Source of the DNA: Desulfofundulus kuznetsovii DSM 6115
GTDB taxonomy: Bacteria > Bacillota > Desulfotomaculia > Desulfotomaculales > Desulfovirgulaceae
NCBI RefSeq assembly: GCF_000214705.1
Contig: NC_015573.1
Span: 1,798,911-1,822,910, forward strand
Length of the DNA: 24,000 nt
Reading direction: 5' to 3'
A model generated the notes under the pieces. The model did no database searches. It saw only the letters and a list, made by a program, of their open reading frames with translations, and was not told the DNA's origin. Both the position numbers and the translations under genes were made by a program. This document shows positions 566 to 15,038 of this stretch, piece by piece; position 1 is the stretch's first letter, and every line of letters starts with the position of its first letter.

Positions 566-621
566 GGGCTATCCCCCTTTCATCGCAACGCTGCCCCGAC
601 AGACATCACTCCTGATACACA

Positions 622-834
622 AAGTTTACAACATCCAGCCTGGTCGTGCAAGACGACGCAAGGCGAACGGCGCAGGACGTTATGTCCGGAAGGTCCTTCC
701 AAAACCACGTCGGCGGGGGCAAACAAAACCTTTCCGTCAATGCTTTTGCCGGAGTATGCTTTAGTCCTGCCGCTCATCTTTTTCCAGTGTATCTTATGCC
801 GGGAGCAGCGCAATAAACCTGGCCAGGCCCAGTA
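622..834. repeat. Segmental duplication, copy A (paralogous to 2833..3039)
   Basis: By-eye alignment runs from AAGTTTACAACA... through GGAAGGTCC, CGGGGGCAAA and TTAGTCCTGCCGCTCATCTT to GCCGGGAGCAGCGCAATAAACCTGGCCAGGC(C/T)CAGTA. Similarity stops abruptly after CAGTA (834 / 3039). Confidence 0.8.
761..834 (-). pseudogene. 3'-terminal remnant of a channel-like membrane protein gene (paralog of 2966..3637)
   Basis: The minus strand reads ..LLGLARFIALLPA*, versus ..LLSLARFIALLPAPGTMDKDERQD* in the intact gene. Only about 25 codons are left and there is no upstream coding continuation. Confidence 0.7.
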
Positions 835-895
835 AAAGTGCCTGGCACCAGACATAACCGGGCTATTATGCTTTTCGTGTTTTTGGAAAGGTCTG

Positions 896-925
896 TTGTC
901 AAAACCTGGTGATAGGGGGTATAAT
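896..925 (+). promoter_or_regulatory. Putative sigma-70-type promoter for the MNT/HepT pair
   Basis: TTGTCA (896-901), an 18-nt spacer, then TATAAT (920-925), about 40 nt upstream of ATG 967. Confidence 0.45.
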
Positions 926-966
926 TTAAGCATCGTGAATATCCCGGTTACAAGGGACGTGGGACG

Positions 967-1377
967 ATGAACAATTACCGGAAATACCTGCAGGGCCACC
1001 TGAAAGAAGTGGCCCGGGAAGAAAAAGAACTGGAGCAAAAAGCAGGCTTGGCCCGGGAAAAGGCCGGGGAAATAGCCCGGCAGCTTGCCCGCCGGTTCGG
1101 CGTGACAAAGGTCTGCCTTTTCGGGTCCCTGGCCGCGGGTGATTTTGATCAGTTTTCGGACATAGATCTGGCCGTGGCCGGACTCCCGGAAAAGGAATAC
1201 CTGAAGGCCTACGGGCTGGCGGAAGAGATGGCCCGCCCCTTTGCGGTGGATCTGGTGCTCCTGGAAAATGCCGTGGAAACATTAAAGGAACGGGTGCAAA
1301 AAGAAGGGATTGTCTTATATGACCGCCAGGGAGAGGAAAATAGCCCGCTTAAAACGCCTGATATCGGAAATAAATGA
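967..1377 (+). CDS. mntA: Nucleotidyltransferase (MNT/MntA-type antitoxin of HEPN-MNT type VII TA systems)
   Basis: Carries the pol-beta-fold NTase signature GSLAAGDF(x5)SDIDLAV. It is small (136 aa) and sits directly upstream of, and overlapping, a HEPN-motif gene. Confidence 0.8.
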   Translation: MNNYRKYLQGHLKEVAREEKELEQKAGLAREKAGEIARQLARRFGVTKVCLFGSLAAGDFDQFSDIDLAVAGLPEKEYLKAYGLAEEMARPFAVDLVLLENAVETLKERVQKEGIVLYDRQGEENSPLKTPDIGNK

Positions 1378-1843
1378 AGACTTGAGGGCAATTGATCAGA
1401 TTGCCGGTAAAGCCCGGGCTTTATTAGAGGAAGTGAATGCCAGAACCGGTCCCGTGCCCGACCGAGATCTGATGGCCATGGCAGCCTATTTGCATCATTT
1501 TTACACGGGTGTGGAATCAATGTTCGAACGCATTTCGCGCCAGATCGACGGCGGGCCGGTTAAGGCCGGAGACTGGCACCGGGAACTTTTAAGAAGCATG
1601 GCCGTAGAACTGGAAGGACTGCGGCCCGGGGTCATATCCCGAGAATTAATGGAAGAGCTGGATGAATACCGCCGCTTCCGCCACCTTTTCCGCCATGCCT
1701 ATGCCGGTGAGCTGCGCTGGATGAAAATGTGCCACCTGGCGGAAAATATGGGCGATATCCTAGGTCTTTTAAAGGGCAAAATGGACCAGTTCAAGACATT
1801 TGTTACGGGTGTGATCGAAGAACTGGAAAAGAACATTGAATAA
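1319..1843 (+). CDS. hepT: HepT-like HEPN ribonuclease toxin
   Basis: Rx4HxY HEPN motif in EYRRFRHLFRHAY, paired with the NTase gene. The track starts at TTG 1310. I prefer ATG 1319, preceded by GAAGGGA, though the start remains uncertain. Confidence 0.7.
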   Translation: MTARERKIARLKRLISEINEDLRAIDQIAGKARALLEEVNARTGPVPDRDLMAMAAYLHHFYTGVESMFERISRQIDGGPVKAGDWHRELLRSMAVELEGLRPGVISRELMEELDEYRRFRHLFRHAYAGELRWMKMCHLAENMGDILGLLKGKMDQFKTFVTGVIEELEKNIE

Positions 1844-2116
1844 TCGCAGTTTTACCAGTGGGCCTGTTTTTTACAAAAAGCATTGGTGAATGGGTGATTA
1901 TACGCATGGGCGTCTACCTGGGATTGGACATTTTGCCGTGGGAGATCAAATAATCAATGCCTTTCCCCTACCCGTCCTGCGCCTTGGCTACGAAGAAAAG
2001 TTTGGTTATCGCCGGCTTCTGCTCAATCTTCCTTCCAATAAGGTCAGATGGCTAAAAAGGTGAATCCGTTATCATTAATATTAGCCCCGGAAGAGCAGGA
2101 GCCGTTATTTACAAGC

Positions 2117-2832: not shown

Positions 2833-3039
2833 AAGTTTACAACAACCCAACCGGCCGGGCAAGGTGACCCAAGGTGAAACGGGGCAGGATGTTCACCCGG
2901 AAGGTCCATCCACGTCAACGGGGGCAAATTAAATCTTCCCGGCTATGCTTTGCCGGCGTATGTTTTTAGTCCTGCCGCTCATCTTTATCCATCGTACCGG
3001 GTGCCGGGAGCAGCGCAATAAACCTGGCCAGGCTCAGTA
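2833..3039. repeat. Segmental duplication, copy B (paralogous to 622..834)
   Basis: See copy A. This copy covers the Uma2-B upstream region plus the true 3' end of gene 2966..3637. Confidence 0.8.
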
Positions 3040-3637
3040 GCGTCATAAACAGCCCGGTTATCGACTGCGCCCACAAAACATACAGACCGATTATTGTCTG
3101 GGCTTTTATGCCGGGAGAACCGAAATTGGTCATGACCACAAAACTGGAGTAAATTATCTCAACCAATGACCCATTCATATTTTCAAATCTAAATTCACCC
3201 GCCAGGACAAGGTAAGCAGCCGCGAACCAGAATATTATTTCAAAATAATTATGCAAAAGCAGCAGAACGGTCCGGCGGTAGCTTCGCACGGAATAGTCCC
3301 TGCTCCGGGCCCTGGCCCTGTGCTCATCAAATAAAAGGACGTTTACCTGGTAGACGGTAATTTCAAAGATCCTCAGGAAGGCATAGACCAGAATAAAATA
3401 ACGCAGGGGGTTAAAATCTATATACCTGATCAATACTACGGCTAAAAAAGATGCGATTAAGTGACCCAACACCCACGCGTCTACAAATATATAACGTTTC
3501 TGGTTACAGAGCCGGTTACGGAATAAATAGCTGATCAATTGGAACAAAGATATCCATTTCAAAACAGCGAAAATCCCGGCCCAGAAGTCTACTATAAACG
3601 TTCGTTCCTCAAGTGTTCGTTCATCCCGGCTGTCCAT
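2966..3637 (-). CDS. Integral membrane protein with a degenerate K+-channel-like pore region
   Basis: About five hydrophobic helices. Between the last two lies SLVEIIYSSFVVMTNFGSPGIKAQ, which resembles a pore helix plus filter (canonical ..TxTTVGYGD) but has TNFGSPG instead. AT-richer than the flanks and 24 nt downstream of gene 3662..4594. Confidence 0.6.
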   Translation of the reverse strand: MDSRDERTLEERTFIVDFWAGIFAVLKWISLFQLISYLFRNRLCNQKRYIFVDAWVLGHLIASFLAVVLIRYIDFNPLRYFILVYAFLRIFEITVYQVNVLLFDEHRARARSRDYSVRSYRRTVLLLLHNYFEIIFWFAAAYLVLAGEFRFENMNGSLVEIIYSSFVVMTNFGSPGIKAQTIIGLYVLWAQSITGLFMTLLSLARFIALLPAPGTMDKDERQD

Positions 3638-3661: not shown

Positions 3662-4594
3662 CTATAACCTCTCTTTCAGCGCTATAATAACCAGTTCCGA
3701 ACGTTCAAAGCCGGTAGCCAAGGACAGCAGATCCAGCCTTCCCTTTACATCCGGCCGAAATCGCGGCGTCAACAGATATGTACCCTTTGGGGTTCTTTCG
3801 TGTTTTAACAGCCAGCGGTAGCGTCTGGCGGCATCACACACGTTTTCCACCCACTGTTTGTCCATCCATTCGCTCAGCAAATTATTCAACAAACTGGAAT
3901 AACCCTCTCCCCGAAGTCGATCATACAGGTCATAGGGCAGATAAATGGATGTCCGGCAGGTTCCCCGGTGAATTCCGGCAAGTTCCTGCCACTGAATTGC
4001 CCATTGCCTCCATTGTTCAGCCATACTTTTCCTGAACATGCTGGTGTGCATCAGCGGTTCAACCAGTGCCTGAAATTTCCGCACCTCAAGACGCGAAGAA
4101 ATGTCCAGTCTTCCCTGTCCATCGATGTTTGCAGAAATATTAAATTTACTTTGCAGCAGGAACCTGAGAAAAGACTTTTCCTCCAGAGTATAGGATTCCG
4201 TGGATAATATTACCCGGCGGCCGCCCTCTTTTAAGTTTCCGTCATCCTGAAACCAGATGGCAAGCCCATCCGCTTCTAAATTTTGGGCAACCCAATCCAT
4301 GGGGATTACTTTGCGCCCTTTATACCAGGTGGGGTACAATTTTTTCAGTAAAGGGGAAGTCCTGGACTGGCACAAAACCCTTACGTACTTCTTCTGCGTT
4401 CTGCGGTCAAAATTACTTCTAACCTGCATCCCGTTGGGGCCATAAGGCAGATAGTTTGCAAACAAATGAAAGCAATACTCGGCGTAGCTCTTATCTGCCA
4501 GCGCATGAATAAAACAAAACCGCGGGGCCCTGTGGGTCACGTTCATATACCCGTCGCCCAGCATTTTTCCGGCAAAGAGGGAAGCAAAAGCCAA
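3662..4594 (-). CDS. Free-standing double-motif LAGLIDADG homing-endonuclease-like protein with a C-terminal extension holding two RHH-like motifs
   Basis: Two LAGLIDADG-type motifs at the usual spacing: SLFAGKMLGDGYM and ADGLAIWFQDDGNL. The flanking pattern is also typical (YPTWYKGRKVIP, LSTESYTLEE, FNISANI). The C-terminal ~115 aa contain TSIYLPYDLYDRLRGEGYSSLLNNLLSEWM and LTPRFRPDVKGRLDLLSLATGFERSELVIIALKERL, both with a strand-helix-turn-helix RHH pattern. TTG start at 4594 with GGTGA 6 nt upstream. Confidence 0.7.
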   Translation of the reverse strand: MAFASLFAGKMLGDGYMNVTHRAPRFCFIHALADKSYAEYCFHLFANYLPYGPNGMQVRSNFDRRTQKKYVRVLCQSRTSPLLKKLYPTWYKGRKVIPMDWVAQNLEADGLAIWFQDDGNLKEGGRRVILSTESYTLEEKSFLRFLLQSKFNISANIDGQGRLDISSRLEVRKFQALVEPLMHTSMFRKSMAEQWRQWAIQWQELAGIHRGTCRTSIYLPYDLYDRLRGEGYSSLLNNLLSEWMDKQWVENVCDAARRYRWLLKHERTPKGTYLLTPRFRPDVKGRLDLLSLATGFERSELVIIALKERL

Positions 4595-5132: not shown

Positions 5133-6341
5133 ATGTACTTCGTAGGGATTGACTGGTCTGACCTGCATCATGACGTAGCTGTGCTTGATGAAAAAGGTCA
5201 CGAGCTAAAATATTTCACCATCCCTCACAACAGAAAAGGCATGGAGTTATTAAAGGAAAGGCTCTTGAGCATCGATCCCGAACCGGAAAACTTCGCCTGC
5301 CTGCTCGAAACCAAAAACGGTCTTCTGGTGCAGTTTCTGCTGGAAGCCGGCTTTCCGGTTTACCCGCTCAACCCGAAGATTGTGGATTACCGGCGAAAGC
5401 CCTCCGGGGCAAAGAGCGACCCCATCGATGCCCGGCTGCTGGCCAACATCGGCCGTTCCGACCTGGCGCAGTTGAAGAGGCTTAAGCCAGATGCGGAACT
5501 GATCGCGGAACTAAAGATGCTCACCCGGGACCAGGACAGCCTGATCCAGGAATCCACCCGGCTGACCAATAAGCTCATAGCTTGCCTGAAGGAGTATTAC
5601 CCGGTAGCCCTGGAATTCTTCTCGAAGCCAACCCTGCCGGTAGCCCTGGAATTTTTCAAGCTTTACCCCACCCCGGATCTGGTCAGGGAAGCTACCGTCC
5701 CGGAGATGGCCGCTTTTCTGAAAAAGCATAAACATCCCCGGCCCAACCAAACGGCCATCTCCATCTGGCAGAAGGTGCATGAGCCGCAGCTTCAGGCCAG
5801 CGCTCCCACCGTGCGGGCAAAAGGCCGCTTAATGCTCGCCCTGGTGAGACAGTTAGAGGTAGTACAGGAGCAAATCGCTGCTTACGACGAGGAGATCAAC
5901 CGCCTTTTTCAGCAGCACTCCGACAGCAGGATCTTCGCTAGCCTGCCAGGGGCGGCCGGGCGGCTTGCGCCAAGACTGCTGGCGGAGTGGGGGGACGACC
6001 GGGAACGTTACGAAAATGCGGCCGTGGTCCAGGCTTTAGCGGGTACCTCGCCGGTTCTCTTTCAAAGCGGCAAGTACCGCTTTGCCAGGCAGCGCAGATC
6101 CTGCGTAAAACCTTTCCGACGAGCTCTGCACCTGTTCGCCTTCCAGAGCATCAGGCAGGTTTCCTGGGCACGGGAATATTACGACACCAAGAGAAGCCAG
6201 GGCAAAACCCACCATGAGGCTTTGCGGGCATTGGCAAATATCTGGGTACGAATAATCTTTGCCATGTGGAAAAACCGTACTTGCTACGACGAAGCCACAT
6301 TTCTCGCAGCCCGTGCCAGGCATCTTAGTCGGGCAGCATGA
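5133..6341 (+). CDS. IS110-family DEDD transposase/recombinase
   Basis: N-terminal RuvC-like MYFVGIDWSDLHHDVAVLDEKG. The C-terminal Transposase_20-like region reads LASLPGAAGRLAPRLLAEWGDDRERY...LAGTSPVLFQSGK. RBS GGAGG lies upstream of ATG 5133. Confidence 0.9.
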   Translation: MYFVGIDWSDLHHDVAVLDEKGHELKYFTIPHNRKGMELLKERLLSIDPEPENFACLLETKNGLLVQFLLEAGFPVYPLNPKIVDYRRKPSGAKSDPIDARLLANIGRSDLAQLKRLKPDAELIAELKMLTRDQDSLIQESTRLTNKLIACLKEYYPVALEFFSKPTLPVALEFFKLYPTPDLVREATVPEMAAFLKKHKHPRPNQTAISIWQKVHEPQLQASAPTVRAKGRLMLALVRQLEVVQEQIAAYDEEINRLFQQHSDSRIFASLPGAAGRLAPRLLAEWGDDRERYENAAVVQALAGTSPVLFQSGKYRFARQRRSCVKPFRRALHLFAFQSIRQVSWAREYYDTKRSQGKTHHEALRALANIWVRIIFAMWKNRTCYDEATFLAARARHLSRAA

Positions 6342-6670: not shown

Positions 6671-7708
6671 TTAGATAGTGCGACTTTGACGAGGACCTGG
6701 TACCAATTTAAAATGCTTATGGGCAAGTGCTGCATAAGCGAGTGGCGACCGGTAAAGTTCTTGTTTATATCTGTAACCTTGAAACGCTCCGCTTACGGCC
6801 AAAATTAAAGACGAAGTCGCGTTGGTTACCAAACCAGTATAATTATCTAAAGAATTCATGGTAAAAAGTTCAGTTACTAAAGGTGTTATTGCGCAAATGC
6901 TACCCAACATAGTTTGCCAACGGTTTGCATTCATTTTTGAAATAAGTTCTTCAATTTCCTCTTTAAAATTTTGGCGTGCTAACTTAATTTTTTCCTGCCT
7001 TAAACTGTTATCTGCTATCGATGAAATATTTATAAATAACGATTCTAATCGTTGTCTAAATCTTCGTAATTCATCTCTATAACGCCCCTTGAATTCTGCA
7101 ATTTGATACGGGCTAACACTTGTAGATGGTGCAGGTAGAATGGATTCAACAAAATCAATAATAAAATTATTTTTGGCAATCATTCTGTTGAGGTTTTTTT
7201 TGTTAATCTTCATATGATGTATCTGAATATTCTTCAAATAATCGGTAACAGGTATAAAATTATGTTCAACCTGACCCAGTACAAACGCTAGGTAAGTCAT
7301 AAAATATATTGCAGTATTTTCTTCCACAAAATACCATGATGAGTTCTTTTGATAGGCGAGACCTCTTTCGCATAGTTCGCGGCCTATATCCGACAATTTT
7401 TCAATATGGATCTCAACATATCGGAATCGGAAATTGTTCCGAATGGAACGTACAATTGGAGTATTATCGAGAAATTCAAAAAAGGATTCACTAAACCTTG
7501 GAACATTTTGTATATATTCTTGTGGAAATATTTGTCTTACTAAACCCTCTTTTACAAGTTCCCTCATATATGGACCTAAAGCTTCAGGCTTATAGATAAA
7601 TTCAAAGGGAACAATGGAGGCCACTTCATCCCAGTAAAGGAGTACTTGTGTAAACCATCTTGTTTGTGGAACTTGTATAAAGGGAAAATAAAGGGCAATA
7701 TTATTCAT
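6671..7708 (-). CDS. Hypothetical protein, family not recognised; strongly AT-rich
   Basis: 345-aa uninterrupted ORF in the most AT-rich stretch of the window. N-terminus is MNNIALYFPFIQVPQTRWFTQVLLYWDEVASIVP. The middle is charged and coiled-coil-like. Two moderately hydrophobic C-terminal segments follow: MLGSICAITPLVTELF and GLVTNATSSLILAVSGAF. AAGGAG sits 13 nt upstream of the ATG. Confidence 0.6.
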   Translation of the reverse strand: MNNIALYFPFIQVPQTRWFTQVLLYWDEVASIVPFEFIYKPEALGPYMRELVKEGLVRQIFPQEYIQNVPRFSESFFEFLDNTPIVRSIRNNFRFRYVEIHIEKLSDIGRELCERGLAYQKNSSWYFVEENTAIYFMTYLAFVLGQVEHNFIPVTDYLKNIQIHHMKINKKNLNRMIAKNNFIIDFVESILPAPSTSVSPYQIAEFKGRYRDELRRFRQRLESLFINISSIADNSLRQEKIKLARQNFKEEIEELISKMNANRWQTMLGSICAITPLVTELFTMNSLDNYTGLVTNATSSLILAVSGAFQGYRYKQELYRSPLAYAALAHKHFKLVPGPRQSRTI

Positions 7709-7742
7709 TTAACACATATCACTCCTTATGAAAAATAATCGA

Positions 7743-9627
<1,885 letters not shown>

Positions 9628-9633
9628 GCACAA

Positions 9634-9660
9634 GGAAGCCAGCCTTTGGGGCTGGCTTCC
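9634..9660 (-). terminator. Terminator hairpin of the flagellin remnant, and attachment motif of the group II intron
   Basis: Perfect 11-bp stem GGAAGCCAGCC/GGCTGGCTTCC with a 5-nt loop. On the minus strand it is followed by TTGTGC and then the intron 5' end. The presumed U-tract continues after the intron as TCGATTATTTTTC. Confidence 0.65.
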
Positions 9661-9673
9661 TGCAAATTTTCTT

Positions 9674-9722
9674 TTACCGCAAGAGCTGGAGGACTGCCTG
9701 ATGCATCTGGTTGGCCTGTGCT
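9674..9722 (-). pseudogene. Flagellin 3' remnant, exon 2 (..AQANQMHQAVLQLLR*)
   Basis: AGCACAGGCCAACCAG...CTCTTGCGGTAA aligns with the fliC end AGCCCAGGCCAACCAG...TTGCTGCGGTAA. Confidence 0.8.
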
Positions 9723-10072
9723 CTGTCGGCCCGCCGCCTTTCGGCGGCGCCTAGACTATATCTTCATCCCACCTATTCCGGCGGGAGTCGGGCGCTTCGG
9801 GCGCCTCCATGCACCCTACGGGCTTCATCACCATACCTTGCGGCTGCAGGTGGTATGCCCTAGTCGTTGAACCTTCCCCAGCCTTTCGGTACAGGGGCTC
9901 GGCTGCTGGTTGCCCAATCCTTCCGGTTTTTTAACCGCTCACGCCTGCCGTTTCCGGCTACGTTGTCGGACGGAAGGCTCTAAGGGGTTCCCAGCAATTC
10001 ACCCGGTGATCCTCCCGGAAATTGCCCTCCGGAACGCCTGTGGTTCCGACGCTTCACTTTGCCAGAACTTCA
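9723..10072 (-). ncRNA. Group I self-splicing intron, ORF-less (350 nt)
   Basis: Core elements on the minus strand: P AAUUGCUGGGAA (9988-9999), Q AACCAGCAGCC (9901-9911), R GGUUCAACGACUAGGGC (9857-9873), S GAUGAAGAUAUAGUCUAGG (9750-9768). Pairings are P4 UGCUGG/CCAGCA and P7 GACUA/UAGUC. A terminal hairpin CGCCGCC-GAAA-GGCGGCG lies at 9732-9749. The upstream exon ends in U and the intron ends in G. Excision restores the flagellin reading frame. Confidence 0.8.
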
Positions 10073-10119
10073 AGCATGGCGGTTGCCGCCTGCTGCAGGA
10101 TGCTCATCTTGGTGAACTC
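10073..10119 (-). pseudogene. Flagellin 3' remnant, exon 1 (EFTKMSILQQAATAM-L)
   Basis: GAGTTCACCAAGATGAGCATCCTGCAGCAGGCGGCAACCGCCATGCT aligns with fliC CAGTTCGCCAAGATGAACATCCTCCAACAGGCCGCCACCGCCATGCT. There is no flagellin homology further upstream and no start codon. Confidence 0.8.
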
Positions 10120-10318
10120 TTCCAATACTTCCAACTCTTTAAGAGTCGGCCTAACCAAAACAAATGTTGTATTATGACATTTACTGCATGATGGAACAGT
10201 CTCACCTTTAACACAGATGATTTCATTATCCGTATTTGATGCACCTATAAATTCCAGATTGCGGTACTATACTACCAGTGGTTACAGTCAACTTTTATCC
10301 TCCCACTCAAAACCTTGT

Positions 10319-10368
10319 AAAATTTTTTAAAGAGGTAAACCGGAAGATAGATAAACTCCCGGTTTACC
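10319..10368 (-). terminator. Intrinsic terminator of fliC
   Basis: Perfect 10-bp stem GGTAAACCGG/CCGGTTTACC with a 15-nt loop. On the minus strand it is followed by TCTTTAAAAAATTTT, 20 nt after the fliC stop. Confidence 0.6.
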
Positions 10369-10388
10369 TAGACCATCGTGGATAGTTA

Positions 10389-11645
10389 TTACCGCAGCAA
10401 TTGCAGCACCATCTGAGGCTGCTGGTTGGCCTGGGCTAGCATGGCGGTGGCGGCCTGTTGGAGGATGTTCATCTTGGCGAACTGCATCATCTCCTTGGCC
10501 ATGTCAATGTCGCGGATACGGGACTCGGCAGCAGTCAGGTTTTCAGAAGAGGTGCCGAGGTTGTTAATAGTGTGTTCTAGCCGGTTTTGATAAGCGCCAA
10601 GCTTTGAACGTTCAGCAGAGACTTTTTCTATAGCATTGTTAATTGTGGTTACAGCAGAGTTAGCCGCCTGTTTGCTAGAGATATCTATTCCCCTTACTGT
10701 CACTTCAGTTCCGTCAGTTATTGCGGCACTGAAAGTAATTAATGTGTTGCCAGCATAATCTTTAAATGTTATCGCATCAGTTGACACTGCAATTACCTCA
10801 CCGTTGCTATCCAACAACGCCTTTTGGGAACCGTCGTACTTATAAACCCCAGCTTGCAGTCCACTGTTAGCTACCTGTCCTGTAGCAGTAGCCGTGCCGC
10901 TGCTAATTGTAACGGTACCACTTTTAACAGCTTCTGTGAATGTTAGGGTATCGTCACCGCTTTTCGCTGCCCATGATTTGCCATTTGTGCTCTCGGCTAC
11001 TGCTTGTCCGTTCGCGTTGATGAGCTCATATTTGCCAGTCTGGTCATTTAGCTGGACAGTATACGTACCGTCAGCAATATCTACTACCGTGTTGCCGCCA
11101 TCTGTCACACTGGCAGTTACCTCAATTGTTGCATCTCCAACAACTCCAAGCGCATATGCGCGCATATCGTTGATGCCCACTGTCAGATTCTGCTTTTCAT
11201 TAGCCCCAATATGAAATACGCCTTTAAAAGTGCCGTTGAGCAGTTTTTGAGTGTTGAACTCGGTAGTATTTCCGATTCTTGAAAGCTCCTGAGAGAGCTG
11301 ATCTACTTCCTTTTGCAGCTCTTCACGGTCGACTGCAGTATTAGTGTCATTGGCAGATTGAACAGCCAGCTCACGCATGCGTTGAAGGATGCTATGGGTT
11401 TCGTTCAAAGCACCTTCTGCCGTTTGAATCAGCGAGATAGCATCCTGCGCATTCTTGGAAGCCATCTCTAGTCCACGAATCTGTGCCCGCATTTTTTCGC
11501 TGATGGCCAGGCCTGCGGCGTCGTCCCCGGCGCGCACGATGCGCAAGCCCGAAGAGAGTTTCTCCAGCGACTTGTTGGCCAGGACATTGTTAGTCGAAAG
11601 CTGGCGATATGTGTTCAGCGCCGCGATGTTGTGGTTGATGATCAT
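10389..11645 (-). CDS. fliC: Flagellin
   Basis: Conserved N-terminus MIINHNIAALNTYRQLSTNN..LSSGLRI..AGDDAAGLAISEKMR, conserved C-terminus ..RIRDIDMAKEMMQFAKMNILQQAATAMLAQANQQPQMVLQLLR, and a variable T/S/G-rich centre. Confidence 0.97.
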   Translation of the reverse strand: MIINHNIAALNTYRQLSTNNVLANKSLEKLSSGLRIVRAGDDAAGLAISEKMRAQIRGLEMASKNAQDAISLIQTAEGALNETHSILQRMRELAVQSANDTNTAVDREELQKEVDQLSQELSRIGNTTEFNTQKLLNGTFKGVFHIGANEKQNLTVGINDMRAYALGVVGDATIEVTASVTDGGNTVVDIADGTYTVQLNDQTGKYELINANGQAVAESTNGKSWAAKSGDDTLTFTEAVKSGTVTISSGTATATGQVANSGLQAGVYKYDGSQKALLDSNGEVIAVSTDAITFKDYAGNTLITFSAAITDGTEVTVRGIDISSKQAANSAVTTINNAIEKVSAERSKLGAYQNRLEHTINNLGTSSENLTAAESRIRDIDMAKEMMQFAKMNILQQAATAMLAQANQQPQMVLQLLR

Positions 11646-11695
11646 CCTTTCCCATTCCTCCCTGAATTTTTTACTCGCCGCCTTCCCTGGCGGCG
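11646..11695 (-). promoter_or_regulatory. fliC leader with candidate CsrA-binding GGA sites
   Basis: Hairpin CGCCGCC-AGGGAA-GGCGGCG (11676-11695) presents GGA in its loop. The SD region CAGGGAGGAAUGGGAAAGGAUG carries several more GGA motifs next to the ATG. csrA and fliW are encoded 2.5 kb away. Confidence 0.5.
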
Positions 11696-11751
11696 GTTTT
11701 TTGAAGGCGCCGGTACCGTCGGCCGCCCGGTACCGGTTCCTTCTAGTTACT

Positions 11752-11780
11752 TAATTCGGAAGGAATTTGAGAAGGTTTAG
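11752..11780 (-). promoter_or_regulatory. Putative sigma-D (sigma-28) promoter of fliC
   Basis: The minus strand reads CTAAA-N15-TCCGAATT, versus the consensus TAAA-N15-GCCGATAA. It lies about 100 nt upstream of the ATG. Confidence 0.5.
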
Positions 11781-11975
11781 GGGGGAAGAAGGCACTTTTT
11801 AACGGACCGCCCCGCCGGGCGGGGGTAAGAAAGCGGCCTGACCTCCCTTTTAAGCCACTCCCGGCTGCCAATTATAACCCCCTGGCGGCCGTTTCCACGG
11901 AAAATGGACGTGCGGGCTGGCCATTAAATGTTCCCTGATAAGTCAATATTAGTATCCACCAGCACTTTAGCGCTC

Positions 11976-12200
11976 GTGAACCTCCCCCGGGACAAGCCCG
12001 GGGGCTTCGTTCCGGAGGTTTCTCATGTCATCGGAATGCTGCCTGCTAAAGCGCAGGTCTTACGCTTTCCTCGTGAGCTACATGGTCGCGTCACCACAAC
12101 CAGGCCCGGTCCATAGGCGTCTACTACTCATCGTAGATACGTCAGGCCGCTCTTTTCGGCGCCAATACCTGCGGCCGCAGGTATTCCACTTTCCCGGGCA
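11976..12200 (-). ncRNA. Candidate omega (reRNA) scaffold of TnpB, from the 3' end of tnpB to the right end
   Basis: Established TnpB biology places the guide-RNA scaffold across the tnpB 3' end and RE. Here the RE ends ..CCCCCGGGCUUGUCCCGGGGGAGGUUCAC, with the flank GAGCGCUAAAGUGCUGG as the prospective guide. The 5' limit is not determinable by eye. Confidence 0.45.
11984..12004 (-). repeat. IS605-type right-end subterminal hairpin
   Basis: CCCCCGGG-ACAAG-CCCGGGGG (plus-strand reading). It has the same loop and core as the LE hairpin. Confidence 0.7.
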
Positions 12201-13392
12201 GCTTGCGGCCCCTGGTGAAACTCCCGTACAGAGCTTTGTCAAGGATGCCGCTGGCTCCCAGCACGTCCCGGTGAATCCCGGTAAACCCGCAGGAAGCATT
12301 GCCGCACCGGTATACGCGCCCGGTCTGTCTGGTGTACTCCCCGCATACCGGGCAGGTGCCGGAGGTGCCACGCTCATCCACCGGAATCAGCTCTATGCCG
12401 TGACGACTGAGCTTGTATGCCAGCAAACCGCGCAGCTTGCCGAAGGCCCACTGGCTCATGCGCTGGTTGTGGTGTCTGCCGCAGTCCCTTTCGCGCACAC
12501 CTTCCGGGTTGCCGATGTAAGCCGTTTTAACGCTCCTTCCCAGGCACCAGCGGACGGCGTTGGCGGATACGGCGTGCAGGATATGTTCTATCCGCCGCTC
12601 GATCCAGTTGAGGAAACGGTACTTTTTAGCCAGGAGTTTCCTGCGCTTCCTGGAACCTTCCTTCGTTTTGGAAATGGCCCGTTGCAACTGCCGCAGCACC
12701 TTGTTTCTCAAGCGGTTGAGCGACCGGAGTAGCCTGCCGCTGATCACTAAAGCACCATCGCCGTCGGTGATGGTCAGGGCATGCACTTCGCCCGGGTCGA
12801 TGGCCGCACAAACGTTGCCCTGAACTTTTAACAGGGCCGGTTTCTCCACCGTTACGTGCAGCCAGTATTGATTACGGTGCCAGACCAGTTGCGCCTGCAG
12901 GATTGTGGCGTTGGTAAGCCCTTTCGGGAGCTTTACCATCAGCGGTTCTCTGCCCCAACCGTTGGAAAGTTTCAATATACGCCCTTTATGGGTAATGGCG
13001 GCTTTTTCCCAGGTAACAGTGAAAAACCTTTTCCGGCGGTAAGGGTACTTCCATTCAGTGTGACCCTGCAGGTGCAGTTCCCTGGTGCGCTCGCAGCACT
13101 CGAAGTAGGTTTCCACCACGGCCTGCACCGATTGGGAGTGAAGGCCGTATTTGCCTTTGAGCAGCGCTTTAATTGCACCTTCGCTCAGCCAGTAACCATA
13201 CCTGCCGTATATGGTGCGGTGGATGTTGCAGGCGGCGTTCCAGACTTTGGCCGCTTCCATTTGCAGGTTGCGGGCTAAAAGAGTTTGCTCCGGGTTAAGG
13301 TGCAGGGGAAACTTTTCCACCAGGACGTCTACGGCTTGCTCCAGGGAATGAGCTTTCGGTTCCTTGACCGCCTTGTTTTTGCACCGGCTCAC
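12142..13392 (-). CDS. tnpB: TnpB (IS605 OrfB-type RNA-guided nuclease)
   Basis: 416 aa. RuvC-I is AAIDPGEVH. The Zn finger is CPVCGEYTRQTGRVYRCGNASCG. RuvC-III is GIHRDVLGASGI. GTG start with a strong RBS GGAAGGAGGTGA 6 nt upstream. Confidence 0.9.
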   Translation of the reverse strand: MSRCKNKAVKEPKAHSLEQAVDVLVEKFPLHLNPEQTLLARNLQMEAAKVWNAACNIHRTIYGRYGYWLSEGAIKALLKGKYGLHSQSVQAVVETYFECCERTRELHLQGHTEWKYPYRRKRFFTVTWEKAAITHKGRILKLSNGWGREPLMVKLPKGLTNATILQAQLVWHRNQYWLHVTVEKPALLKVQGNVCAAIDPGEVHALTITDGDGALVISGRLLRSLNRLRNKVLRQLQRAISKTKEGSRKRRKLLAKKYRFLNWIERRIEHILHAVSANAVRWCLGRSVKTAYIGNPEGVRERDCGRHHNQRMSQWAFGKLRGLLAYKLSRHGIELIPVDERGTSGTCPVCGEYTRQTGRVYRCGNASCGFTGIHRDVLGASGILDKALYGSFTRGRKLPGKVEYLRPQVLAPKRAA

Positions 13393-13694
13393 CCGGTTTC
13401 ACCTCCTTCCGGAATGTTTTTTGAGCTTCGATGTATTTGCGGATAGTTTCGGCGCTTACATTACCGGCCGTACTAATGTAGCAGCCTCTACTCCACATGC
13501 CGCTGCCCCAGAAGTATTTTTTCTTAAGGCCTTTCCATCTGGATGAGTGTGTATCCGTAAGTGTTGCAGATTTCTTGAATTGTCAGTTTTACGGTGTCTT
13601 CCACCCTGCCGGTAATTACCTTATGCCGGTATTTTGGGCAAAACACGATATGGTAATTGATGTTATAGACGCAGTGGTTCATTTTTCCATTCAT
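13295..13694 (-). pseudogene. tnpA: IS200-type Y1 transposase tnpA with an internal deletion and frameshift
   Basis: The N-terminal piece is MNGKMNHCVYNINYHIVFCPKYRHKVITGRVEDTVKLTIQEICNTYGYTLIQME, then a stop (13524). The C-terminal piece, in another frame, is KKYFWGSGMWSRGCYISTAGNVSAETIRKYIEAQ. The HUH (..DHVHLL..) segment between them is absent. Confidence 0.8.
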
Positions 13695-13700
13695 AGCATG

Positions 13701-13729
13701 ATTATAGCACCAGAACAGGTGTTTGTGAA
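13701..13729 (-). promoter_or_regulatory. Putative promoter in the IS left end
   Basis: The minus strand reads TTCACA-17 nt-TATAAT, immediately upstream of the tnpA remnant. Confidence 0.45.
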
Positions 13730-13766
13730 TACATTTGTCGCCCTGACGGGCGACGCCCCGCTCGAT

Positions 13767-13785
13767 CCACGGGACAAGCCCGTGG
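13767..13785 (-). repeat. IS605-type left-end subterminal hairpin
   Basis: CCACGGG-ACAAG-CCCGTGG. A second hairpin GTCGCCC-GTCA-GGGCGAC lies just inside the element. Confidence 0.7.
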
Positions 13786-13805
13786 GTTTTCAGGGGCGGA
13801 TTTCT

Positions 13806-14048
13806 ATAAAGTTCCTCCCGCCGCCACCGCCGCCCCTGATCCTGTTTGCTGCCCGGCCTGAACCGGCTGAAAATAAATTGTTTTTCCCGCTCCCAGGCAG
13901 CGGGATTTTTAGGCATGGCCATTCCAGCAGATAGTTGCGCCTCAATGGCGCGCCTGATCAATTCCGCTTCCGTTACACCCAGTTCCCCGGCCTTTTTTTT
14001 AAGCAGGGCATTCTGATGGGCTTCAATATACACTTGCTTACGAATCAA
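13806..14048 (-). pseudogene. RHH (CopG-like) protein gene, copy 2, interrupted two codons before its stop by the IS605 element
   Basis: MIRKQVYIEAHQNALLKKKAGELGVTEAELIRRAIEAQL...WRREELY is about 70% identical to ORF 15087..15335. The last codons and stop (GAGCGCTAA) now lie at 11967-11975. The 174-aa track ORF 13524..14048 is a read-through chimera into the IS. Confidence 0.75.
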
Positions 14049-14405: not shown

Positions 14406-15038
14406 TTATTTCCCCTCCCCGGCGGGTTCCGCCCCTTCGCCCGTCCCGGCATCGCCCGGTGGGGATTCGGGCCCGGTTCCGGAGAGGTGCCGGGACGGGG
14501 AATCCTTCTGGGGCCGGGGGCGGTTGGGGGAGGCTGGCCGGGGCTGGGAACGGGAACTGGCCGGCGGGCAGGGTTCGCCGGCCGGCCTGGTTCCGGACCC
14601 GGCCGGTTCCCGGTTTTCCGGACGGGGCCCGCTCAGCGGTTGCCTGATGGAGTAGCGCTCGTCCACCAGCACCACCTGGCGGGCCGTACCGGTGGCCGCG
14701 TTCACCACCACCGGGGCCAGGAGGTTGACGGTGGCGCGGGCCAGGCCGCGGCTGGCGTTGACGATGCAGAAGACGGCCGCCTCTTCCGGGGCCTTTATAC
14801 CCAGGGCCCGGGCATCCTCCTCGGGCAGGTCGAACTCGTAGTTGGGGAAAAAGGCGAAAGGGTTCACCAGGATGAAGCCGATGTTTTCGTCCTGCAGGGA
14901 CTGCAAAAAGAAAAAGGGCGATTCTTCCGCCACGGCCACCAGTTCGAACTCGGTCAATTCCGCGGGCAGGCCCGGCAGCCCGGCAGGAAAGGTGATGGTT
15001 TTGCCTTTTTCAGACGACAACGTAATTCCTCCATTCAT
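14406..15038 (-). CDS. fliW: Flagellar assembly factor FliW with a ~70-aa Pro-rich C-terminal extension
   Basis: The FliW core spans about aa 1-140 (ITFPAGLPGLP..FFFLQS..FILVNPFAFFPNYEFDL..NLLAPVVVN...RQVVL). It is followed by low-complexity SGPRPENREPAGSGTRPAGEPCPPASSRSQPRPASPNRPRPQK... reaching the csrA start. Confidence 0.9.
   Translation of the reverse strand: MNGGITLSSEKGKTITFPAGLPGLPAELTEFELVAVAEESPFFFLQSLQDENIGFILVNPFAFFPNYEFDLPEEDARALGIKAPEEAAVFCIVNASRGLARATVNLLAPVVVNAATGTARQVVLVDERYSIRQPLSGPRPENREPAGSGTRPAGEPCPPASSRSQPRPASPNRPRPQKDSPSRHLSGTGPESPPGDAGTGEGAEPAGEGK

Follow-up and report, generated by a model that had tools for sequence, protein, structure and literature searches.

Does the DNA behind the flagellin gene fliC of Desulfofundulus kuznetsovii DSM 6115 hold a true group I intron, and how did such an element come to lie in what looks like the end of a second flagellin gene? 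We analysed a stretch of 24,000 nucleotides (nt) around this locus (NC_015573.1, positions 1,798,911 to 1,822,910; hereafter the window, whose own numbering is used throughout). Taken as a whole, the best explanation, which we consider very probable, is that positions 10072..9723 of the minus strand are a genuine group I intron of subgroup IA architecture, without an open reading frame (ORF), lodged in a non-functional flagellin leftover. The coordinates of all features are collected in Table 1.

The initial annotation, made from the letters of the DNA, had placed a group I intron on the minus strand from 10072 to 9723, in the 3′ remnant of a second, truncated flagellin gene. A scan of the whole window against Rfam at gathering thresholds gave three matches, one of them to Intron_gpI (RF00028) at 10043..9732 of the minus strand; with 65.7 bits (E 7.6e-15) over the full model (1-253) it lies above the cut-off of 50 bits and bears the proposal out. 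A hidden Markov model (HMM) built from homologues scored the window intron at 251.9 bits (E 6e-77). The limits were fixed by exon logic, that is, by reading the minus strand and translating the joined exons. Exon 1 ends at 10073 as ...GCCATGCT, with U at position −1, and the intron closes with ...CCGACAG, whose terminal G is followed by exon 2 (AGCACAGG, first letters AGCACAGGCC), 49 nt ahead of the stop codon. Once joined, the exons translate as ...EFTKMSILQQAATAML|AQANQMHQAVLQLLR and stop (...QQAATAML joined to AQANQMHQAVLQLLR; ...AATAMLAQANQ...LLR), where the vertical bar, here and below, marks the splice junction. This product parallels the C-terminus of the intact fliC, ...MNILQQAATAMLAQANQQPQMVLQLLR, so the predicted length of 350 nt, the exon-terminal U, the intron-terminal G, and the restoration of a frame that matches the fliC tail were all confirmed. 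Together with the tblastn match of the upstream piece, the joined translation also supports the claim of a truncated flagellin 3′ remnant; clear homology of its 5′ exon at the DNA level is confined to 10119..10073 (47 nt), and ~47-70 nt of this exon survive. No endonuclease-sized ORF exists on the intron strand, as had been stated: the only read-through in the 350 nt is of five codons, to an in-frame TGA at 10056..10054, inside the P1 loop.

The closest relative of the remnant belongs to a metagenome-assembled genome of Desulfovirgula sp. (locus L012, contig DYEX01000035.1), which is 94.7% identical over window positions 9633..10119 (487 nt) and 95% identical in the intron alone. The homology starts exactly at 10119, 47 nt ahead of the splice site, and stops just past the hairpin at 9634. 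In L012, the intron interrupts the same AML|AQAN codon and is preceded by at least 89 contiguous codons of flagellin exon 1, up to the point where the available locus sequence ends. In the window, the DNA upstream of ~10143 consists instead of a zinc-ribbon ORF, then the hairpin terminator of fliC, then fliC itself, and no further flagellin fragment or second intron was found in the window. When the exon-1 tail of L012 was used as a protein query it retrieved generic short flagellin C-terminal pieces, none of them ending in intron read-through. The 16-mer ATGCTTGAAGTTCTGG was sought in metagenomes; the matches listed were chance matches, none containing the intron, the pattern being too short.

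The family to which the intron belongs was obtained by one scan of species-representative genomes with a pattern made of the S element and QAN(Q/H) codons, which gave at least 120 loci; in these, nhmmer detected at least 75 homologous introns in at least 55 loci, one per species-level genome. The earlier remark that group I introns in protein genes are rare in bacteria therefore fails within the flagellin family. Forty introns among the homologues listed were aligned, and RNAalifold returned 77 pairs; adding P7 as a pseudoknot and dropping one spurious hairpin led to a final model of 78 pairs. Compensatory changes were present in 51 of the 78, and 96.5% of the paired cells could pair, vs 33-44% after sliding the partners by 1-3 columns, and no observed pairing measure was attained in any of 500 shuffles. 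Covariation was seen in P2, P3, P5 and its extensions, P6, P7.1, P7.2, and P8, while P4 and P7 were invariant. The P4 and P7 pairings and the GAAA-capped terminal helix (P9) described at the outset are present in the window sequence, and the fold from P3 to P8, including the P3/P7 pseudoknot, is supported by the covariation. Considering that P7.1 and P7.2 lie between P7 and P3′ (helices 13-16, window 9860..9799, all of which covary), and that this arrangement is a hallmark of IA, we assigned the intron to subgroup IA. The window RNA had a better minimum free energy (MFE) fold than 100 shuffles (z = −3.6), and the ~100 columns invariant in the family are all intact in the window copy; by this model the ribozyme is probably still foldable. 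Over nt 66-214, its core shares 72-75% identity with IA2-type introns of Firmicute phages (Bacillus SPO1-like, Staphylococcus, and Alicyclobacillus phages), a resemblance to IA2 in the core; the host genes are different, and the peripheral helices and P1 region are unrelated.

A different guide from the one first proposed emerged for P1. It had been suggested that GGCA at intron nt 10-13 pairs with exon UGCU, but the MFE fold and the comparison of homologues give AGGC at nt 34-37, and GGCA turned out to lie within the P1 extension, in its 5′ strand. The guide pairs with AUGCU|UG across the exon/intron boundary, with GCU|U:AGGC as the core pairing and a U.G pair at the splice site. Across three insertion sites, the tetranucleotide that immediately precedes P2 covaries with the splice junction: site A, RDVD|MAKEM (junction GAU|U, guide core AGUC); site B of the Bacillaceae, MLA|QANQ (GCU|C, GGGC); and the site of the window and L012, ML|A (GCU|U, AGGC). 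The guide reads CACAGGCGTTCC in the window vs CACAGTCGTCC in the site-A introns of Desulfurispora and Moorella (AGTT in L242, Desulfurispora). A single U-to-G change in the guide (AGUC to AGGC) thus matches the exon change from GAU| to GCU| at the new site, from which we infer that the intron lineage moved 27 codons downstream within the flagellin gene by guide mutation. Such a shift, accompanied by a site jump, would be a clean natural example of P1 specificity retargeting an intron.

By tblastn, almost all the intron loci listed map in or beside flagellin genes of Bacillota. After L012, the closest introns are the site-A introns of Desulfurispora thermophila (L242) and Moorella thermoacetica (L244), which surfaced through the neighbourhoods of an endonuclease gene described below; they are ~85% identical over 210-230 nt and match RF00028 with 68.5 and 62.9 bits, respectively. 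Like the window intron, they lack an ORF and have a P1 region of the same design, which includes a stop codon, and downstream of their flagellin genes lies a LAGLIDADG gene from the same clade. They differ in splitting RDVD|MAKEM (GAU|, guide AGUC or AGUU) in apparently intact genes, whereas the window intron lies 27 codons further 3′, in a remnant. Identity to the Bacillaceae introns was 65% for site A and 60.5% for site B, and the insertion point ML|A (GCU|A) occurred in none of the Bacillaceae loci retrieved; judged by these comparisons, the window intron is a third lineage beside the two Bacillaceae ones. It adds to flagellin-gene group I introns that were already known. The mention of such introns in Geobacillus was correct, since they have been reported in Geobacillus stearothermophilus and thermophilic Bacillus (Hayakawa and Ishizuka 2009, 2012, as cited in PMC3984707 and PMC4853749), the Geobacillus intron being called IA2 in PMC4853749. 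These systems and ours have in common the flagellin host gene, the ribozyme class, the IA type, and a thermophilic Bacillota host. Multi-intron flagellin genes, too, are found among the homologues here, e.g., in Paranoxybacillus. The host of the window intron is instead a clostridial lineage of Desulfovirgula/Desulfofundulus type and its gene is a truncated leftover. Flagellin-gene group I introns are, then, a large and structurally well-supported Bacillota family and not a Geobacillus curiosity. IStrons (PMC4227781) are also similar in that a group I ribozyme lies in protein-coding DNA of Bacillota, and the window does contain an IS605-type TnpB gene; that gene (13392..12142) is 2 kb away beyond fliC and not fused to the intron, which is of 350 nt and followed directly by exon 2, and we rejected this assignment.

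The state of the window copy was compared with that of L012. The window copy forms 73 of the 78 model pairs and L012 forms 76; three pairs, in P3, P6b, and P7.2, are broken in the window copy only, and three more Watson-Crick pairs are wobble pairs there. In exon 2 of the remnant, a conserved Pro of the flagellin tail has become His (CCC to CAT relative to L012), while this Pro is kept in nearly all of 120 flagellin tails compared. A promoter scan of 9500..11900 gave no sigma-70-like promoter, and a sigma-28-like element, TAAA-N15-CCGAAT, was present upstream of fliC only. The substitutions suggest relaxed constraint, or mild decay, of the window copy.

Taking these observations together, the following origin can be proposed. 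What is left of the gene is the final ~16-24 codons of exon 1, followed by the intron, an exon 2 of 15 codons, and the terminal hairpin; this leftover would be the product of a recombination, everything 5′ of about 10119-10143 being unrelated DNA. Its intron presumably descends from the Bacillota-wide flagellin family, with the nearest relatives at RDVD|MAKEM (GAU|). Transcription of the remnant would require read-through past the fliC terminator. The RNA should then fold and splice by the two-step, guanosine-initiated pathway, using the P1 formed by AGGC (nt 34-37) with GCU|U and the G that is the last intron base. The ligated product would have no start codon and would be useless. The mobility of the family most likely depends, in a manner resembling collaborative homing, on a free-standing LAGLIDADG gene, which is normally found immediately 3′ of the flagellin gene and is present and intact in the window.

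The absence of a homing endonuclease stated in the initial annotation thus holds for the intron itself and not for its surroundings, as a free-standing LAGLIDADG_2 gene lies 5 kb downstream on the same strand. The encoded protein has 25 homologues, the best of which is 96% identical (an 'endonuclease' of Desulfofundulus sp.). Six gene neighbourhoods could be retrieved, from Desulfofundulus, Desulfurispora, Moorella, two metagenome contigs, and Fictibacillus (loci L241-L247). In each of them, the LAGLIDADG gene is the next gene downstream of a flagellin gene, past the terminator of the latter. Five of these flagellin genes are split into an ORF with N- and C-terminal domains, a gap of ~350 nt, and a Flagellin_C ORF of 37-44 amino acids (aa; 94 aa in L244), with the endonuclease gene within ~1.2 kb of the stop codon of the split flagellin. 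The remaining flanking genes vary by locus, so that the flagellin 3′ end is the sole constant. Among the intron loci listed, an ORF matching the profile of this clade was found downstream of the intron in 16 of 55, or in 15 of the 45 with at least 1.2 kb of downstream DNA; it was mostly convergent and within ~100 nt of the flagellin stop. As a hypothesis, the endonuclease and the intron may be partners. The LAGLIDADG-like ORF of L012 (3018..4427) was discarded as a counterpart, its similarity to the window gene going no further than family level. Directly after the endonuclease gene, at 2966..3637 (-), there is a predicted membrane protein of 223 aa without Pfam match, 37% identical (E 1e-36) to an ORF in the same position in Desulfurispora (L242, 8964..9638), and the two genes may travel together.

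It is tempting, though we would not yet favour it, to see in these loci a chromosomal selfish cassette, here dismantled: ORF-less introns in conserved flagellin 3′ ends with a LAGLIDADG gene just behind, whose enzyme would cut cassette-free 3′ ends, repair then co-copying the intron, the 3′ exon, and the endonuclease gene. The literature searched contained no description of such a flagellin cassette and nothing that links LAGLIDADG with flagellin; a study of Geobacillus (PMC5109656) notes LAGLIDADG genes in the flagellin-flaG interval and makes no mention of introns. By comparison with collaborative homing in phages, as reviewed in PMC3984707 (section 12), there is again an ORF-less intron in a conserved coding region and a free-standing endonuclease gene beside the host gene; the differences are the bacterial chromosomes, the LAGLIDADG enzyme, and the 5-kb gap in the window. 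If true, the cassette would cause the ends of flagellin genes to be exchanged horizontally throughout Bacillota, with leftovers like that of the window as a result. The flagellin-linked LAGLIDADG clade would offer a testable mechanism for the spread of ORF-less introns together with flagellin 3′ ends, and for gene fragments at flagellin loci.

Several points weigh against the reading of the locus given so far. Exon 1 of L012 was followed to the locus edge only, so a full-length intron-bearing allele is not strictly established. The three broken pairs leave the window copy within the range of the family (70-78 of 78), which makes decay suggestive, not proven. Splicing competence, lack of expression, the direction of recombination, and the partnership of endonuclease and intron are all deduced from sequence. 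The clade-profile ORF was in none of 65 chance-match loci (Fisher 1e-6 vs the intron loci), but these controls are non-flagellin loci, so the test ties the endonuclease clade to flagellin loci and not to introns. In the window the endonuclease gene is far from the remnant, at the 5 kb already mentioned, and both the window and L241 have this gene beside an intron-less fliC, for which reason its target is not simply any intron-less flagellin gene.

The most serious competitor, in our judgement rather unlikely, is that the fragment was never a full gene here: the end of exon 1, the intron, exon 2, and the hairpin, perhaps with the endonuclease gene, would have been pasted behind an intron-less fliC already resident there, through a homing or co-conversion event that was abortive or illegitimate. 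The locus is a mosaic, fliC being 81% and the endonuclease gene 96.5% identical to L241, and the remnant and the other blocks (1-598 and 2065-2810) 92-95% identical to L012. Moreover, L241 has fliC, the terminator, and the endonuclease gene with the remnant absent, and endonuclease-driven repair is expected to carry 3′ exon DNA along. However, the position of the remnant and its hairpin corresponds to the 3′ end of the intron-bearing gene in L012, with syntenic blocks beyond, and two relatives give no polarity to the change.

A second alternative has its analogue in the way in which gene ends are arranged in the Bacillaceae, in 39 loci among the matches listed (e.g., L048, 7150..7720; L016, L021, L027, and L032). 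There, the 3′-terminal intron comes after a complete flagellin ORF including its stop codon, and the last 14 codons occur once more, as a second copy, past the ribozyme. Since the GCU|C:GGGC P1 sets the 5′ splice site at MLA|Q, the first tail copy lies inside the intron. The short stretch that links the stop codon to the guide is complementary to the QxNQ codons of the first tail copy and covaries with them; the mean cognate duplex was of −6.8 kcal/mol vs −4.7 kcal/mol for non-cognate ones, and 0 of 10,000 permutations were as good. Each of the 39 first copies is an intact ORF of 15 codons (the last 14 codons and the stop), and the second copy is more conserved (85.5% vs 70% nucleotide identity), with QANQQPQGVLQLLR in 26 of the 39. 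Judging from these sequences, spliced and unspliced Bacillaceae mRNAs would both encode full-length flagellin. The window intron is without an in-frame tail copy. With this precedent of a full tail and stop inside the P1 region and a covarying guide extension, the remnant might be conceived as a functional cassette: after read-through, the ribozyme would pair with the identical CCGCCAUGCU in the fliC mRNA and replace the final 15 codons (QQPQMV to QMHQAV), so that flagellin would be made with an alternative tail. Indeed, fliC has an identical 10-nt context of the 5′ splice site. We consider this very improbable, because the two sites are separated by 370 nt with a terminator hairpin and a foreign gene fragment between them, compared with at most ~60 nt in the Bacillaceae, the local exon-1 copy would compete for the guide, the conserved Pro is missing from exon 2, and ribozyme pairs are broken. 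The last alternative, that GC-rich intergenic DNA resembles the group I consensus by chance, has nothing beyond the moderate Rfam score in its favour and can be dismissed in view of that score's E value, the massive covariation in at least 75 homologues, the exact restoration of the frame, and the 95% identical copy in the flagellin gene of a relative.

Leftovers like that of the window recur, since some Bacillaceae loci hold decayed intron-bearing flagellin 3′ ends; these are L049, L055, and L056 (2597..2292), whose exon 1 or first tail copy contains stop codons. In L080, an ORF of 93 aa without Pfam match replaces part of a relative's intron.

Table 1. Features of the flagellin locus in window coordinates.
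Feature	Position	Strand	Basis or remarks
ORF-less group I intron, subgroup IA architecture	9723..10072	(-)	350 nt; RF00028, family HMM, exon logic
Truncated 5′ exon, last ~24 flagellin codons, ...LEEFTKMSILQQAATAML	10073..10143	(-)	tblastn, residues 377-403, E 9e-4 (weak)
3′ exon, AQANQMHQAVLQLLR and TAA stop, 15 codons	9674..9722	(-)	Joined-exon translation, L012 alignment
Internal guide CAGGCGU (core AGGC)	10034..10040	(-)	Intron nt 33-39 (core nt 34-37); MFE fold and homologues
P1 extension, 8 bp, GUUCUGGC / GUCGGAAC	10068..10061 / 10050..10043	(-)	MFE fold
P3	10006..10000 / 9794..9788	(-)	Part of catalytic core 9754..10006
P4, TGCTGG/CCAGCA	9996..9991 / 9909..9904	(-)	
P6	9903..9871	(-)	
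P7, GACTA/TAGTC	9865..9861 / 9758..9754	(-)	
P7.1	9860..9820	(-)	
P7.2	9816..9799	(-)	
P8	9786..9767	(-)	
GC-rich hairpin after remnant stop codon	9634..9660	(-)	Common to L012; insertion site of group II intron
Intact intron-less fliC, 418 aa	10389..11645	(-)	Pfam Flagellin_N 2.7e-47, Flagellin_C 1e-30
Spacer between fliC and remnant	10145..10368	(-)	fliC hairpin terminator 10368..10334 and frameshifted zinc-ribbon ORF; no homology to L012
Group II intron with reverse transcriptase (RT)/maturase ORF (9229..7808)	7683..9631	(-)	RF02001 147 bits, RF01998 64 bits, weak RF00029; RVT_1 and GIIM domains
AT-rich (32% GC) DUF6236 gene	6671..7708	(-)	
IS110-family transposase gene	5133..6341	(+)	
Free-standing LAGLIDADG_2 gene, 310 aa, both motifs	3662..4594	(-)	Pfam 8.3e-24

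The surroundings of the remnant are rich in insertions. In the intact fliC, the insertion site is present without an intron, as ...CCGCCATGCT|AGCCCAGG; it lies 370 nt upstream of the copy that holds the intron. The zinc-ribbon ORF in the spacer (10145..10291 (-)) has a Shine-Dalgarno sequence GGGAGG and a TTG start at 10291, is frameshifted after 21 codons, and abuts the remnant; its match to DUF1451 is weak and below the Pfam cut-off (E 0.046). On the other side, the group II intron is inserted 2 nt past the remnant hairpin, at a site that is empty in L012; such a position, past a terminator-like hairpin, is characteristic of class C group II introns, of which the window copy may be one. No endonuclease domain was detected with Pfam in its RT/maturase ORF, and in the DNA downstream of this intron the homology with L012 does not resume. 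The group II intron, the AT-rich DUF6236 gene, and the IS110 transposase gene together occupy the interval between the remnant and the endonuclease gene, and the flagellin 3′ flank is an insertion hotspot.

Further insertions were observed elsewhere in the window. Compared with L012, the window has an insertion at 598..2065 that holds a nucleotidyltransferase/HepT-like pair (967..1843, +); L245 has a similar pair after its endonuclease gene, and in L241 that gene is followed by homologous DNA. An IS200/IS605-type element (12142..14048 (-)) is located between fliW and fliC. Its TnpB, the one compared above with IStrons, is of 416 aa with OrfB_IS605 and Cas12f1-like TNB domains, and the last 47 residues of the companion ORF match a Y1 transposase. 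It was also possible to see that FliW has a C-terminal extension of ~75 residues, rich in Pro, Ser, Arg, and Gly, encoded at 14406..14630 (-) in DNA of 73% GC, beyond the FliW domain (residues 15-135).

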